A DNA stretch of 64,000 nt, from the NCBI RefSeq assembly GCF_024700885.2, contig NZ_CP117014.1; one strand, given 5' to 3'. Of this stretch, positions 2,923 through 60,130 are shown in pieces (position 1 is the first letter of the stretch; each line of letters begins with the position of its first letter). Source of the DNA: Escherichia coli (GTDB lineage Bacteria > Pseudomonadota > Gammaproteobacteria > Enterobacterales > Enterobacteriaceae). The position numbers and the translations under genes are program-made. The notes beneath the pieces are model-generated. The model had not been told where the DNA came from. It saw only the letters and a program-made list of their open reading frames with translations, and did no database searches.

Positions 2923-3513
2923 CTACACAAAAACAGATGATATGTTGCTACGGTTAATCGAGGTGTTTCCGCTGCATTGCAGGGTTACCGTGTTATGAGT
3001 GAAATAGCCTTCCGGTGTGCGTGGGGCGTCCAGTTGGTAACTCACGCTTTTGATAACAACGTCGGTAAGGGCTATGTTCCTACCTATGTTTAACGTTACT
3101 GTCTCCGGGCGACGACCGAATGGCGCTACATTGTTCAGTTCCGGCGATTCCATCTTCAGCAATGCTGTAATGGCTGCGTTTACTTCAAGTTGCGCGTTCG
3201 TTGTCGCCATGAAATCAATTACCAGATTAAATTCAGGCGGTTGCTGACCTTCCCAAACAAGCATTGAGTTGAAGAGGGTTTTTGTTGTTACGCCGGTTGC
3301 GGTCTGAAGCGTATCTGCAAGAGAGCCAGCCGCAGCGCTAATACCACCAAGCAAACCTCCTACTGACTGGTTTTCAAATGGTGATTGCCACATTGATGAC
3401 AGTTCTGCGGTAGATCCTTCACCGATATAACCGACGACCATATCCTCTGAAGAGAGGATATAAACCTTCATTAACGGACTTATTCCGTCAGGCATTATCG
3501 CGCCGCAAATCAA
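2923..3513 (-). CDS. Virion morphogenesis operon protein, hypothetical (196 aa)
   Basis: ORF in structural operon. Confidence 0.4.
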   Translation of the reverse strand: MICGAIMPDGISPLMKVYILSSEDMVVGYIGEGSTAELSSMWQSPFENQSVGGLLGGISAAAGSLADTLQTATGVTTKTLFNSMLVWEGQQPPEFNLVIDFMATTNAQLEVNAAITALLKMESPELNNVAPFGRRPETVTLNIGRNIALTDVVIKSVSYQLDAPRTPEGYFTHNTVTLQCSGNTSINRSNISSVFV

Positions 3514-13789: not shown

Positions 13790-13885
13790 TTAGAACTTAA
13801 AAAGTCTTGAACCAAAGGTGCACCAATACACCACTAATTTGGTGCACCTTTACATCCTTTTTGGTTCCAATTGTGTACCATTTGT
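13790..13885. repeat. Second set of centromere-like boxes downstream of ParG-like gene
   Basis: GGTGCACCAAT, TTGGTGCACC, GGTTCCAATT, GTGTACCATT at ~13818-13883. Confidence 0.4.
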
Positions 13886-22916: not shown

Positions 22917-23648
22917 ATGAGCGCTGATTCATCAATAGAAAAGGAAAACCCCTCTACCAAAAATCTGTTAGAAGACGCTGTAAAAGATAAGTTGTTTAAT
23001 AAGGTTTTTGCCTATATTTTTATTTCATTTTTAATTTCTAACTGGCAAGAAATATTGATTTTGTTTAAATCAAAATATGATATATACACAACACTATCTA
23101 TAGTATGGATTGGTGACAAATATCAAGTCCCTTATTTGGGAACCTTCATTGTACCTCCGTTTTTAGCTCACTTTGTTATGCCGTTTATATATGGCACTGT
23201 TGCGTCCATAGTAATGCCTTATATTACTATGCGTATATCAAAACTAACTGGTAGAAATTATGCGCAAATAAGACATATTGACCGTGAATTTGACTCAAAA
23301 GAGCAAGCAAGATTAGATGAGTTACAGAAAGAAATAGAACAAAAAAAAGATGAGCGTTTAAGTCTAGAAAAGAAAATAGAAGATCAACGTAAATCATTGG
23401 CTAAAATTGAAGGTGAAAAGAAAGAAGTTGAGGACGCTAGAATATCCCTGTTTTATGGGATAAAGGCAATAGTTGATATATATGAAACCAAAGGCGAAAG
23501 CATTTCCACCCAAGAGGATTTTGCTGATTTACTAAAGGCAGTCGAACAAACTGATTTTTATAAAGATACAGGTTTATACGGTATTAATAAATTGGTAGAT
23601 GATGTAAAAAGAATATACGAACATCAATCTATCTTAAATGATAAGTAA
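22917..23648 (+). CDS. Membrane protein with 2-3 N-terminal transmembrane helices and a long charged coiled coil (243 aa)
   Basis: Strongly AT-rich gene; hydrophobic segments (FAYIFISFLISNWQEILILF; FIVPPFLAHFVMPFIYGTVASIVMPYITM) then E/K-rich heptads. Confidence 0.5.
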   Translation: MSADSSIEKENPSTKNLLEDAVKDKLFNKVFAYIFISFLISNWQEILILFKSKYDIYTTLSIVWIGDKYQVPYLGTFIVPPFLAHFVMPFIYGTVASIVMPYITMRISKLTGRNYAQIRHIDREFDSKEQARLDELQKEIEQKKDERLSLEKKIEDQRKSLAKIEGEKKEVEDARISLFYGIKAIVDIYETKGESISTQEDFADLLKAVEQTDFYKDTGLYGINKLVDDVKRIYEHQSILNDK

Positions 23649-23677
23649 TAACATAGGCGGGATAACCGCCTATGTTA
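23648..23677. terminator. Bidirectional hairpin between convergent genes
   Basis: TAACATAGGCGG-gataa-CCGCCTATGTTA inverted repeat. Confidence 0.45.
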
Positions 23678-23681
23678 TCAA

Positions 23682-27074: not shown

Positions 27075-27467
27075 TTGAAAAGATTGACAATTGCTTTACT
27101 GGCGTCTTTCCCTTTGATCGCGAGCGCCGGAAATTTACAAGTTAAGTGCGGTCGGTTTGATATAAAAATCTATCCAGATGCCATATTTCTGAATGGGAAT
27201 AAGGTTGATAACGTACACCGAAAAACTGAATCTGACGTAATGAGCTATGTGTTCCAGGAGTATGCGGAGATGGGGGGAACTTACACGCTGTACTCGCTGG
27301 ATGTTCCTTCTCGCGGTGATATGACATTATCCCATCAATGGCAGAACGCCGATGGCGAAGCTCTGCGCGAAGTTAAAACAGAAAAATGTGGCACTTTCCA
27401 TTCTTTTAAAGGGAAAGTGCCAAATGTTAAATCTGTGCTTGAAAAACAGCGCGCAGGTGATTTTTAA
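27075..27467 (+). CDS. Exported protein with signal peptide (130 aa)
   Basis: MKRLTIALLASFPLIASA signal peptide. Confidence 0.5.
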   Translation: MKRLTIALLASFPLIASAGNLQVKCGRFDIKIYPDAIFLNGNKVDNVHRKTESDVMSYVFQEYAEMGGTYTLYSLDVPSRGDMTLSHQWQNADGEALREVKTEKCGTFHSFKGKVPNVKSVLEKQRAGDF

Positions 27468-27489
27468 ACTGTGTTAGCACTTTGAACAT

Positions 27490-27535
27490 GGCGACAACAC
27501 ATCTTGGTGGCTGCGTTGTCGCTGTATGTTTTTAT
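27490..27535 (+). terminator. Rho-independent terminator
   Basis: GCGACAAC...GTTGTCGC stem followed by TGTATGTTTTTAT. Confidence 0.5.
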
Positions 27536-27555
27536 AATATAAAGCATTAAAGTTT

Positions 27556-28185
27556 TCATTTTTGTCGGATCTTTTCCAGCATATTTAATTCATTATCACT
27601 TTCTGCTGCTGAGACGGTTGGCCTCACATTTCCGAAATATTTCCTGTGAGACTCATGACTTATGTATTCACCGACAGTTTCATTCTTGAATATACGAATT
27701 TGACATATGCGAGATCCAACAATAAGTTCTACAGGGCTATTCCCATGATTAAATAACTCTAAAGATATACAGCCTCTGTACCCTGGTTGTATCATGGTAT
27801 TTAATGAAAGACCAAGCCTTGTATAGCTGCTTCTGGACAATACATCAGCGTAGCAATCTGGTGGCAAACAAACATATTCTAATGTTGTTGCCAGTACCAC
27901 TTGATTCGGGTAAACAATGAACCTATCCCCAAGATCTCTCCTTGTTTCCTGGAAAAATGTTCTGATTGGTTGATGAGTATCATTGTTTTTTGAGGGAATT
28001 AACTCTATTGACGGCTTCCTTGTCATAATAGACACTAAAAAATCGTAACCAAGTCTAAGGTCTATGGTGAAGTTTCCAATTTGGTTTTTATTTAGAAGAG
28101 GTTCAATGAACAACGACTCAGGTTCTTCTGATTCATAATATTGCAGCAATTCAGCTTTGCTTAGGAGATTCATTGTGCACTCCAT
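27556..28185 (-). CDS. dCTP deaminase (Dcd/dUTPase-fold) homolog
   Basis: 209 aa collinear with E. coli Dcd: IDLRLG, LATTLEYVCLP, RSSYTRLGL, GYRGCISLELFNHG; putative catalytic Ser/Arg/Glu conserved. Confidence 0.7.
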   Translation of the reverse strand: MECTMNLLSKAELLQYYESEEPESLFIEPLLNKNQIGNFTIDLRLGYDFLVSIMTRKPSIELIPSKNNDTHQPIRTFFQETRRDLGDRFIVYPNQVVLATTLEYVCLPPDCYADVLSRSSYTRLGLSLNTMIQPGYRGCISLELFNHGNSPVELIVGSRICQIRIFKNETVGEYISHESHRKYFGNVRPTVSAAESDNELNMLEKIRQK

Positions 28186-29243
28186 TTTTCAAGAATCATT
28201 ACGTTTCGAATCGATTTTTCAACCAAATCATTTATAGTTTTTTCTATGGCTTCTTTTGACAACCCAGACCATATACCCGTAGGTTTTTCCCATTCAGAGC
28301 ATAAGTACTGCCAGCTGCTGTTAATAAAAGCATGCATTTCATTGTGGTCGCGAATAACAAAAGGACGCACATTATCAAAAGCTGATTTCACATCAAGCAA
28401 AGGTGTCGGCAATGTCAAACAAGGAGAAATAATCTGCCCACCCTTATGTAAGGCTGATATCACAGCATTGAACATGCCAACAACTGGATTTTCCACTTTG
28501 TTCAAAAAGTCGCTTACAATTTTAACTCTATCTTCTGTGGATGGGTGAGTATAGCTTGCAGGATGAGAGCCAGCTAATTTGTATAAGAAATCTACCCCAC
28601 TTTTTCCAATAAATTGGGCACTAAATAGATCTGCAAAATATTCTCTGCAATGATTTATCCAAATAACATCAGGTAGATTACTCCATTCTGGTCCTGGAAG
28701 TGTGCCTTTGTCCTTGGAACGATAGTTAAGACAGGCAAGCTCAGAAATACCTTTGCTAATATCAACGAAATGTCCCAATTCGTGATATAAAGGTATAGAG
28801 CATAATGGTCGTCTTCTGTACATTTCAGGTAATGAAATCTGAATTAATTCGACCTCGAATTTGACATTTAAAACTTCATCAAATAAAGAATACAAATTCT
28901 TGTTTACAGACTTAAAATAAAACCCATGCATATCTGGAGATAGGGCTGTGGTTATAAGTGTTTTTTCACTTATCCATTTTTTACAGGCATCATTTAAGCA
29001 ATAAACAATCTCGTAGGGAATTTTCTTTGTAGTACTGCCAGTGAAAAAATTAACTGCATCGGTGATAAAAAAAGTACAATCCGCAATTATTTTATCAGCA
29101 ACATTCACATGGTTTTCATAGAGCTTATCTACCGCTTCTTGTAGAACAGCAAGATATTCATGCATGTCTTTAGAAAAATAGGGAGATTCTGATATCTCCC
29201 TTAGCTTATTTCGAACTAATGTAAGTTGTGTAAATGCAAGCAT
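28170..29243 (-). CDS. HExxH zinc metallopeptidase-like protein (ImmA/IrrE-like motif)
   Basis: 357 aa; HELGH at residues 154-158 with downstream EYFADLFSAQFI; 16-nt overlap with Dcd-like gene. Confidence 0.5.
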   Translation of the reverse strand: MLAFTQLTLVRNKLREISESPYFSKDMHEYLAVLQEAVDKLYENHVNVADKIIADCTFFITDAVNFFTGSTTKKIPYEIVYCLNDACKKWISEKTLITTALSPDMHGFYFKSVNKNLYSLFDEVLNVKFEVELIQISLPEMYRRRPLCSIPLYHELGHFVDISKGISELACLNYRSKDKGTLPGPEWSNLPDVIWINHCREYFADLFSAQFIGKSGVDFLYKLAGSHPASYTHPSTEDRVKIVSDFLNKVENPVVGMFNAVISALHKGGQIISPCLTLPTPLLDVKSAFDNVRPFVIRDHNEMHAFINSSWQYLCSEWEKPTGIWSGLSKEAIEKTINDLVEKSIRNVMILEKWSAQ

Positions 29244-29548
29244 TAAATGTACTCTAATACATTCCGGGCCATTACGGGTTCTAACATATCTTCGCTAGTT
29301 ACTTTGGTTAGCACCTGGGCGAGCGCCTTAGTGTGGCGTATCTCTACCGCGAGCGAGATGGACTCTCTGTGAGAAGGAATCTGTAATTGATCACCTTTAT
29401 CTACACTTAAGTTTGAGGCTTCTCTGATCACCTCATAAACCCGTAACTTTAACTGCTGTGACACTTCTTGTTGAGATGCTATAAGCTGAAGTACAGTCTT
29501 GATTAACTTCAAAGAATCAGAAGCTTGCTGAGGAACCGCATAGAGCAT
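29243..29548 (-). CDS. Small hypothetical protein (101 aa), first gene of the three-gene operon
   Basis: Stop overlaps start of the metallopeptidase gene; predicted all-alpha. Confidence 0.4.
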   Translation of the reverse strand: MLYAVPQQASDSLKLIKTVLQLIASQQEVSQQLKLRVYEVIREASNLSVDKGDQLQIPSHRESISLAVEIRHTKALAQVLTKVTSEDMLEPVMARNVLEYI

Positions 29549-29684
29549 AACCCCTCCTTTTCCCTTATCTATAACCGCTTTCTTTTTTCTGTGGATGTTA
29601 AAAGTAGAAGCGGTTTTTACCTTTTATAATATATATAGTGTCTAAAACTAATTTTGGCACTATATATGGCATGATATCTATGTT

Positions 29685-29730
29685 TTAAAGACACAAAAGC
29701 TCTGTTAAAACAGAGCTTTTGTGTCTTTAA
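29685..29730. promoter_or_regulatory. Perfect 20-bp inverted repeat with 6-nt spacer upstream of the three-gene operon
   Basis: TTAAAGACACAAAAGCTCTG-ttaaaa-CAGAGCTTTTGTGTCTTTAA; second IR ATATATAGTG-N17-CACTATATAT at 29631-29667. Confidence 0.5.
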
Positions 29731-29874
29731 CTTGATCATTTTCTCGCTGAAGTGTATGTCAGGCTTAGCTCATAATCAAGTTGCTTCCAAGCTAAAAATG
29801 AGCTATTTCACTGAAACACCAAGAGCGGGATGTTTCATTTATTTGCGTTGGGCCTGACGGTGTGCAGGTGAGTT

Positions 29875-30162
29875 TTAGCTCATCACACTATAACGACGGG
29901 GAACGGAATTCTCCATCAGGTCACGAATTACTCCCGCCTCATGTAGTTCCTCTGTTTCCCAGTATCTGTTTGTCACCAGATCGAGGCTGGCTATGACCTT
30001 GTGCCGGTCATTAGGCATAGCCAATTTTTCTGCTATAACCATCAGTGAAAACTCTTCATCCAGTAGGATTTGATACCAGACTTTTGACAGCTCCAACTCT
30101 CTAATGAGGGTGAAGCGCCGCTCAAGTGTGGCGGCAGAATAAGTGAAATCTATTTTTTTCAT
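29875..30162 (-). CDS. Hypothetical protein (95 aa)
   Basis: ORF downstream of antirepressor-like gene. Confidence 0.4.
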   Translation of the reverse strand: MKKIDFTYSAATLERRFTLIRELELSKVWYQILLDEEFSLMVIAEKLAMPNDRHKVIASLDLVTNRYWETEELHEAGVIRDLMENSVPRRYSVMS

Positions 30163-45270: not shown

Positions 45271-45305
45271 AAAGAAGCCCGCTCAACCAGGCGGGCTTCT
45301 TACTA

Positions 45306-50180: not shown

Positions 50181-50214
50181 CTAACTTTAAATAATGCCAA
50201 TTATTTAAAGTTAT
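50181..50214. other. lox-like recombination site: 13-bp inverted arms with 8-bp asymmetric spacer
   Basis: CTAACTTTAAATA-ATGCCAAT-TATTTAAAGTTAT; outer AACTT/AAGTTAT shared with loxP. Confidence 0.6.
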
Positions 50215-60017: not shown

Positions 60018-60130
60018 TGCTATTCCCGTTACTTTGTTAAATTATTTTTCTAACATATTTTATTAGTTTGATGACAGTATCGAAAGATGCAATAAACAAA
60101 AAACCCGCTAATTGGCGGGTTTTTATGCAA

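Follow-up and report, generated by a model that had tools for sequence, protein, structure and literature searches.

A perfect palindrome in the leader of a mobile three-gene operon: evidence for a possible structured 5′ leader RNA

We examined a palindrome, here called HP1, that lies upstream of a three-gene operon (g1-g2-g3) within 64,000 nucleotides of Escherichia coli DNA (contig NZ_CP117014.1; the whole stretch is referred to as the window). HP1 travels with its operon, holds its position and keeps its base-pairing while its sequence changes. It is very probably a functional, conserved cis-element of the operon, and we lean toward the view that it acts as RNA. Our overall reading, held with modest confidence, is that HP1 and a second inverted repeat, HP2, may be stem-loops of a structured 5′ leader RNA that controls operon expression. 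A leader RNA hairpin was absent from the options offered by an earlier, sequence-only reading of this DNA – a regulator's operator, an insulating terminator or the edge of a mobile cassette – and fits best.

A palindrome that travels with its operon

The sequence-only reading had described a perfect 20/20 palindrome with a 6-nucleotide loop. The palindrome is real and was slightly understated, as a repeat finder returned the following element, with 22-nucleotide arms at 29685–29706 and 29709–29730 that are 100% complementary:

29685–29730, minus strand: palindrome HP1, perfect 22+22 arms with a 2-nucleotide gap; 5′ arm of the predicted RNA stem at 29730–29709, 3′ arm at 29706–29685

HP1 is the longest perfect hairpin-type repeat in the window (the runners-up have 14 and 13 bp arms), and the longest arms in 20 shuffles of the window reached 8–13 bp, bearing out the claim that such a palindrome is rare. 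We found no second copy of the half-site in the window at up to 3 mismatches. The stem is AT-rich, with 7 G:C pairs in 22 bp; its operon-strand RNA folds at −31.7 kcal/mol (z = −9.1), a value that none of 200 shuffles equaled. HP1 stands 137 nucleotides from the g1 ATG (29548, minus strand), in agreement with the earlier estimate of about 140 bp. Both repeats that had been assigned to the operon's control region do lie in its leader, on the minus strand.

A search of homologous operons in other genera had been proposed, and it recovered a palindrome at the same position. We found 216 g2 homologues, fetched loci for close and distant ones, and collected 92 distinct loci (designated by L numbers). 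In every gamma-proteobacterial lineage with g2 identity of at least 51%, an inverted repeat able to form a hairpin lies between about −196 and −104 relative to the g1 ATG, the long palindrome itself falling at about −185 to −135. The taxa with the conserved leader palindrome are Dickeya, Proteus, Shewanella, Aeromonas and metagenomes; locus L110 is truncated upstream of HP2. Individual versions are as follows:

L066 and L067: 22+22, gap of 2 nucleotides; centre flipped relative to the window
L012: 24+24
L007 (Dickeya): 22+22, gap of 0
L118: 22+22, loop TTTT
L009 (Proteus): 24+24; about 8 of 22 positions differ, every change mirrored
L112 (Shewanella): 25+25; one mirrored 1-nucleotide deletion and two mirrored substitutions
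L111: 28+28; wholly unrelated sequence in the same place
L015 (Aeromonas): 8-bp perfect core; distal arm decayed

By locus, the perfect arms thus measure 22, 22, 22, 22, 24, 24, 25 and 28 bp in gamma-proteobacteria. The exceptions to a long stem are L119 (14 bp) and the Aeromonas version (8 bp). HP1 arms are far better conserved than the surrounding leader, and those of the window and Dickeya are identical though their flanks are unalignable. Palindrome sequence and protein similarity are not coupled: between Dickeya and Proteus, g1 identity is 88% yet the palindromes are different; between the window and Dickeya it is only 64%, with identical arms.

Two flavobacterial loci carry unrelated perfect 22+22 palindromes 25–72 nucleotides upstream of the g1 ATG (L050, Flavobacterium salmonis, 3394–3438; L056, Nonlabens xiamenensis, 3437–3480). 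The sister flavobacterial loci L051, L057 and L060 lack such a palindrome. Perfect palindromes with arms of at least 20 bp number ten in the 616 kb of the 92 loci, and eight of them fall in the 200-nucleotide leader that makes up 3% of the DNA.

A covariance model of HP1 plus HP2 scored 78–129 bits on its members and, in 686 kb, found nothing outside operon leaders save weaker opposite-strand matches at the same palindromes. No Rfam family matched HP1 at its gathering threshold; the best hit scored 26.9 bits against a required 50, and the matches were to generic hairpins. A wider sequence hunt gave one locus from IMG/VR and mostly distant homologues from a metagenome scan, and tblastn against plasmids and phages added no new close lineages.

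Base-pairing, strand and the fate of the arms

Pairing in the leader is maintained through substitution. Alignment A6, of nine leaders, has 97.7% of its cells paired and two-sided changes at 15 of 31 pairs; none of 500 shuffles reached the observed covariation, and sliding the partners by 1–3 columns left 0–4 two-sided pairs. A second alignment, of ten lineages (A8), raised the number of pairs changed on both sides to 18 of 31.

The L119/L120 lineage (g2 67% identical, all three genes intact) separates the two strands. Six positions of its DNA dyad are asymmetric, and its sense RNA nonetheless forms a 14-bp stem of 10 Watson–Crick and 4 G·U pairs. For L119, sense-strand folding reaches −16.5 kcal/mol (z −3.3), a value equaled by none of 200 shuffles; the antisense strand, at −3.5 kcal/mol (z +0.4), stays unfolded. 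One-sided changes in HP1 and HP2 read as wobble pairs (G·U or U·G) on the sense strand in all eight cases; a single A·C, beside the loop, stands against them.

Several points weigh against an RNA-level reading. The strand asymmetry of G·U pairs rests on few independent events. Nine lineages, comprising about 190 pairs, show no wobble and no mismatch, and dyad symmetry runs nearly to the centre, with gaps of 0–4 nucleotides. Such perfection exceeds what an RNA stem needs and suggests a constraint or process at the DNA level. Blocks reading TAAAG and GCTCT are conserved inside the arms and could be protein contacts. At the level of the family, leaders of lineages with g2 identity of at most 49% (L113, L114 and L116) lack significant structure. 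The covariance model recovers no members outside the gamma-proteobacterial branch, and the z-scores of 87 leaders are barely below those of coding controls (p = 0.04), with sense equal to antisense. The hairpin is missing in distant homologues and is therefore not essential to the system; the family-wide nulls indicate that the hairpins are branch-specific, joined by the two independent flavobacterial palindromes.

The centre of the palindrome offers a clue to the process that keeps its arms alike. At 29705–29710 the sense strand of the window reads TTTTAA, within CTG-TTTTAA-CAG, and ETEC1732 and 1EC213 likewise have TTTTAA; L066, L067 and L012 have TTAAAA instead (CTG-TTAAAA-CAG in L066 and L012), so that the central dinucleotide is flipped. 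Such a flip in copies that are otherwise nearly identical resembles an inversion, or a template switch, between the arms. Because most copies are unbroken Watson–Crick palindromes and the centre is flipped in this way, we suggest that the arms may be homogenized at the DNA level by template switching within the quasipalindrome, with selection for RNA-level pairing acting on top. The larger unpaired centre of L119 may have let that palindrome escape homogenization and gather G·U pairs. Quasipalindrome template-switch mutagenesis, the subject of the Ripley model, has reportedly been studied in E. coli by Lovett and colleagues. It accounts for the mirrored substitutions, the mirrored indel, the perfect arms and the flipped centre seen here. 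As a mutational process, it leaves the persistence of the palindrome at one position in many lineages unexplained.

That persistence bears on whether HP1 has any function of its own. Inverted duplication or template switching in an AT-rich leader might have produced it as a by-product, with mutation bias keeping it perfect and selection tolerating it – a reading in keeping with the absence of the hairpin from many homologous operons and with perfect arms and a flipped centre, the hallmarks of quasipalindrome homogenization. Against it stand the shared position in every gamma-proteobacterial lineage above the 51% threshold, the conservation of the arms relative to the flanking leader and the retention of pairing through G·U in L119. 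Unrelated palindromes of independent origin also occupy the corresponding site in L111, L050 and L056; four of six independent origins falling in the 3% of DNA that is leader gives p ~1e-5 by hand calculation. We consider a functionless by-product quite unlikely.

We give equally little credence to a DNA structure as the functional form, that is, a cruciform, or a single-strand hairpin of the coding strand formed while it is being transcribed or replicated, that makes promoter output follow supercoiling or replication state. Strict Watson–Crick perfection, AT-rich centres and the narrow central gaps would suit it, and the flipped centre in near-identical plasmids shows the arms interacting at the DNA level. 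G·T is also the best-tolerated mismatch in DNA hairpins, and L119 is therefore compatible with a hairpin of the coding strand. A cruciform needs both strands to pair, whereas L119 pairs on one only. Stems of 22–28 bp, moreover, extrude poorly at physiological superhelicity, and we know of no precedent for cruciform or DNA hairpin control in such operons.

The leader from promoter-like element to start codon

The leader of g1 contains the following features besides HP1:

29774–29779, minus strand: putative −35 hexamer TTGATT; TTGnnn conserved in 10 lineages
29751–29756, minus strand: putative −10 hexamer TACACT, with the same conservation as the −35; predicted transcription start at about 29743–29745
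29631–29667, minus strand: HP2, ATATATAGTG (29631–29640)-N17-CACTATATAT (29658–29667); stem conserved, loop variable
29573–29615, minus strand: HP3 (tentative, from the sequence), AACCGCTT (29615–29608) pairing with AAGCGGTT (29580–29573) just upstream of the ribosome-binding site
29553–29557, minus strand: Shine–Dalgarno GGAGG of g1, read from the sequence; a purine-rich block before the ATG is kept in all lineages

A promoter-like element, TTG(ATT/AAT/CTT/TCA/TCT/TTT)-N17-TA(C/A/G)(A/G)CT, precedes the palindrome in 10 of 10 lineages; the 17-nucleotide spacing is constant and the spacer sequence variable. HP1 begins 20 nucleotides past the −10 hexamer in the window and 5–21 nucleotides past it in other lineages, which would place the start of the palindrome at about +5 to +15 of the transcript. 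Homology between different genomic contexts starts about 5 nucleotides upstream of the −35 hexamer. A promoter scan calls only the Shewanella version, TTGTCA-17-TACACT. In the flavobacterial loci L050 and L056, a perfect TAnnTTTG motif, which we take to be the Bacteroidetes promoter motif, lies 22 nucleotides upstream of the palindrome.

The promoter evidence adds to the points that count against a leader RNA. The element matches 8–9 of 12 consensus positions (8 of 12 in the window) and is below the scan threshold in most lineages, and the operon's transcription start is a position predicted from it. In the window the scan proposes an alternative promoter, CTGACA-16-AATGAT; transcription starting from an embedded (C/T)TGACA with a downstream −10 would leave the 5′ arm of HP1 untranscribed.

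GCTTGACA, a perfect −35 hexamer, occurs within the putative promoter spacer and is kept in 7 of 10 lineages (window 29757–29764, minus strand, where the sequence reads CCTGACA). Across lineages we found no conserved −10 partner 16–18 nucleotides downstream of it. We rejected (C/T)TGACA as the main −35, as a −10-like partner is present in the window only and absent from homologues.

The second inverted repeat reported in the sequence-only reading, at 29631–29667, was recovered as described, with ATATATAGTG and CACTATATAT 17 nucleotides apart; the repeat finder extends it to 16 nucleotides at 88%. Its core, ATATRTAGT-N19/20-ACTAYATAT, is kept in all gamma-proteobacterial lineages, even in L111 with its unrelated HP1. 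Mirrored changes occur within it (A:T to G:C and back recurring at one position, T:A to C:G at another in L118), and wobble appears as G·U on the sense strand only. Because its stem sequence is conserved, HP2 is more likely a sequence-specific recognition site. HP3 shows one two-sided change, GCTT/AAGC in the window versus GCCT/AGGC in L012; it is listed as tentative because alifold support across subgroups is weak. In the Dickeya group, the HP3 region contains a pyrimidine tract that pairs with a GAGAAGG purine tract via U·G pairs.

The promoter-like element also bears on two proposals of the sequence-only reading. One was an insulating terminator, which would keep transcription of the icd-ant-orf95 phage genes upstream from running on into the operon, or would attenuate the operon itself. 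Like an intrinsic terminator, HP1 is a very stable intergenic stem-loop past a co-oriented gene, 145 nucleotides beyond the stop of the 95-aa gene. It differs in its tail: across the lineages examined, neither strand carries a U/T tract past the stem. No run of about five or more T/U in 8 nucleotides was found 3′ of the stem, where the tails read TTTAAAACAT (window), TTTAAAAAAG (Dickeya), TTTAACTCAT (L012) and GGGTCAATAT (L111); the tails outside the window are similar to its own or G-rich. A terminator scan made no call at the palindrome in the window, L007, L112 or L119. The AT-rich 22-bp stem with 7 G:C pairs contrasts with the short, G+C-rich stem of about 5–14 bp expected of a terminator, HP1 lies downstream of the conserved promoter-like element rather than ahead of it, and the upstream genes vary in kind and orientation between contexts. 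We therefore set the terminator aside as highly unlikely.

The other proposal was an operator, in which a dimeric or tetrameric repressor – host-encoded, or an unrecognized activity of g1 or g2 – would bind the duplex palindrome and block transcription just past the promoter, with HP2 as a second operator. Part of this stands. A perfect dyad lies 5–21 nucleotides past the putative −10, and a position of +5 to +60 suits a roadblock. The symmetry reaches nearly to the centre, nine lineages lack G·T, and the TAAAG and GCTCT blocks are conserved. The identity of the window and Dickeya arms amid unalignable flanks and the near-constant N19–20 spacing of the HP2 cores speak for an operator as well. 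Perfect dyads beside promoters are likewise found in toxin–antitoxin (TA) and defense operators (parD kis-kid region I; the BrxR/CapW and CapH sites upstream of BREX and CBASS), whose host operons are also small, mobile and potentially toxic; CapH/CapP, like g1-g2, pairs a metallopeptidase with a small protein.

The remainder of the operator reading fares less well. Those operators span 8–24 bp and have a recognizable helix–turn–helix (HTH), ribbon–helix–helix (RHH) or WYL binder in the operon, whereas the HP1 dyad covers 44–58 bp, about three times the usual operator, and no HTH, RHH or other DNA-binding domain is evident in g1, g2 or g3. The g1 protein, which we considered as the repressor and rejected, is acidic with a generic helical fold. 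The palindrome does not covary with the proteins, unrelated sequence takes its place in L111, L050 and L056, and one lineage, L119, has lost the DNA symmetry and keeps RNA-type pairing on the sense strand through G·U. A specific candidate, the operator of the P1 C1 repressor, was rejected: no site matching its consensus, ATTGCTCTAATAAATTT, occurs in the window at up to 3 mismatches, and the HP1 arm matches 8 of 17 positions by eye. An operator is thus the main rival to the leader RNA but disfavored, and we regard it as unlikely overall.

We return to the leader RNA. We propose that HP1 and HP2 could be two stem-loops of a conserved 5′ leader RNA of about 190 nucleotides belonging to the mobile g1-g2-g3 operon. 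Transcription would start from a sigma-70-type promoter, TTGATT-N17-TACACT (29779–29751), and the HP1 stem would form at about +5 to +60 of the mRNA. HP1 may be specified by shape rather than sequence, as a perfect double-stranded RNA (dsRNA) helix of 22–28 bp near the mRNA 5′ end, while HP2, 15–20 nucleotides past it, may be a sequence-specified stem-loop. Purely as conjecture, RNase III cleavage within HP1 could govern how stable the mRNA is or how it is processed, and so its basal level; this message is predicted to encode a potentially toxic, nucleotide-depleting dCTP-deaminase-like enzyme.

RNase III comes to mind because the length of the HP1 helix fits its need and the enzyme is present in all hosts. 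RNase III leader hairpins (E. coli rnc and pnp; the lambda N-leader and sib) resemble HP1 in being long, stable stems in untranslated mRNA where shape prevails over sequence, and RNase III sites take two helical turns or more (about 22 bp), a length equaled by the 22–28-bp arms here. Natural sites usually have internal loops or mismatches. HP1 differs from them in that its stems are perfect DNA palindromes and that the L119 version has only 14 bp, with G·U pairs. That RNase III reads HP1 is a tentative suggestion that we think less probable than the RNA reading itself.

The cassette, the operon and possible restraint

The window comes from a D6/P1-like phage-plasmid. Plasmids of about 90 kb from E. 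coli and Salmonella match the segment, and phage D6 matches the flanks. The operon segment forms an insertion of about 2.4 kb (~27470–29885) between backbone genes of 130 and 95 amino acids. These two genes abut, without the intervening segment, in most relatives, for example plasmid JS316 (L002), which identifies 27470–29885 as an inserted cassette. At its two edges stands an imperfect direct repeat that corresponds to the 3′ end of the 130-aa gene (GCAGGTGATTTTTAAAC / GCAGGTGAGTTTTAGC):

27453–27469: left cassette edge, GCAGGTGATTTTTAAAC, 3′ end of the 130-aa backbone gene, by comparison with JS316 (L002)
29864–29879: right cassette edge with the second repeat copy, GCAGGTGAGTTTTAGC; homology to the backbone picks up again at about 29886–29895

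The operon thus forms a cassette within a phage-plasmid backbone and is also found in islands and Tn7-like cargo, which would suit the third proposal of the sequence-only reading, HP1 as the edge of a mobile cassette. In that case HP1 would be an end or recombination site, such as a transposon terminal repeat, a MITE/REP element or an attC-like site. We find this extremely unlikely. HP1 occurs once per cassette, with no partner at the other end, and the conserved module begins about 55 bp before it, with the promoter-like element in between; the actual junctions in the window are elsewhere, at 27453–27469 and 29864–29895. The operon region is carried by 7 of 5,426 complete E. coli genomes and by 11 of the 72,556 plasmids searched, and the palindrome region was found there only together with the operon. 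An attC site is further contradicted by a perfect dyad with neither extrahelical bases nor a GTTRRRY core, placed 5′ of the operon.

Two plasmids of Salmonella sp. Sa1423 (L004 and L005) carry the same cassette at 85–92% identity, but indels are numerous and the genes are broken up. Both probably come from long-read assemblies left uncorrected, and their palindrome differences are therefore not to be taken as natural variants. Elsewhere in the window, other perfect inverted repeats occur at 50182–50213 (14+14, AT-rich, 4-nucleotide loop), 13814–13851 (13+13, 12-nucleotide loop) and 23648–23678 (13+13, 5-nucleotide loop), and terminator-like G+C stems flanked by A and T runs lie at 45272–45301 and 60099–60124.

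The three open reading frames (ORFs) of the operon are tightly packed or overlapping:

29243–29548, minus strand: g1, 101 aa, acidic all-helical protein of no known family
28170–29243, minus strand: g2, 357 aa, HELGH ... E(Y/F)FAD zinc-peptidase-like protein
27556–28185, minus strand: g3, 209 aa, dCTP-deaminase/dUTPase-fold protein

We found no Pfam domain in g1, which appears as a generic helical bundle; the median pI of its family is 5.1. The g2 protein has invariant residues H154, E155, H158, E201 and D205, a weak domain match to Peptidase_M48 and an AF2 model with pLDDT 95. The g3 protein matches TIGR02274 (NCBIfam) at 9.8e-33, scoring 113 bits against a cut-off of 92.8, and is further labeled dCTP deaminase by PHROG 1663 and dcd in the RefSeq annotation.

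The 92 distinct loci span Gamma-, Beta- and Alphaproteobacteria and Bacteroidota. Almost every one has g2 and g3 adjacent, and an ORF of about 100 amino acids starting ML(Y/A)A precedes g2 across the set. Neighboring genes include QatABCD and an integrase in Proteus, TniQ/Csy2 in Shewanella and, at other loci, a type I restriction subunit with HNH or TniQ with ThiF/Multi_ubiq. These contexts look like defense islands, Tn7/CAST cargo and phage-plasmids. An HTH plus Peptidase_M78 (ImmA/IrrE-like) gene or gene pair adjoins the operon in Dickeya (L007, 6779–7906) and in a metagenome locus in Tn7 cargo (L116, 1145–2061); it could be a separate regulator or another defense module.

No PADLOC-DB v2 family matched g1, g2 or g3 at E up to 0.01, and literature searches on the three-gene system found no paper describing a g1-g2-g3 unit. 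On these grounds we label g1-g2-g3 a candidate new nucleotide-depletion defense system. A more ambitious version of the leader RNA reading, which we rate as improbable, is that the dsRNA stem, together with HP2, is the sensing or restraining part of this undescribed system. In one form, an unstable leader RNA would keep a g1-g2-g3 complex inactive, and its removal, when a phage shuts off transcription, when RNase III is modulated or when a phage factor binds dsRNA, would free the dCTP-deaminase-like effector. The logic would be that of a type III toxin–antitoxin system or of AvcI, operating by helix shape rather than sequence.

In AvcI-AvcD, a non-coding RNA beside a deoxycytidylate deaminase defense gene restrains AvcD. 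That system and ToxIN, a type III TA system, share with the present operon a structured promoter-proximal RNA ahead of an effector, on mobile elements, and a nucleotide deaminase. The enzymes differ in fold, as AvcD has the zinc cytidine-deaminase fold and g3 the trimeric Dcd/dUTPase fold. Compared with AvcI-AvcD, the RNA here would be an mRNA leader, two extra proteins are present, and binding of the RNA to the enzyme would be hypothetical.

Structured leaders and palindromic control sites are already known kinds of element. HP1 stands out because its arms stay strictly perfect as the sequence turns over, because such palindromes have reappeared independently in a second phylum and because it is tied to an apparently undescribed operon. 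HP1 marks the regulatory region of the widespread g1-g2-g3 unit, and HP2 plus HP1 provides a specific annotation signature for its gamma-proteobacterial branch. The leader is also a natural test case for separating RNA-level selection from DNA-level palindrome homogenization, and HP1 offers an experimental handle on how a candidate nucleotide-depletion system may be silenced and switched on.

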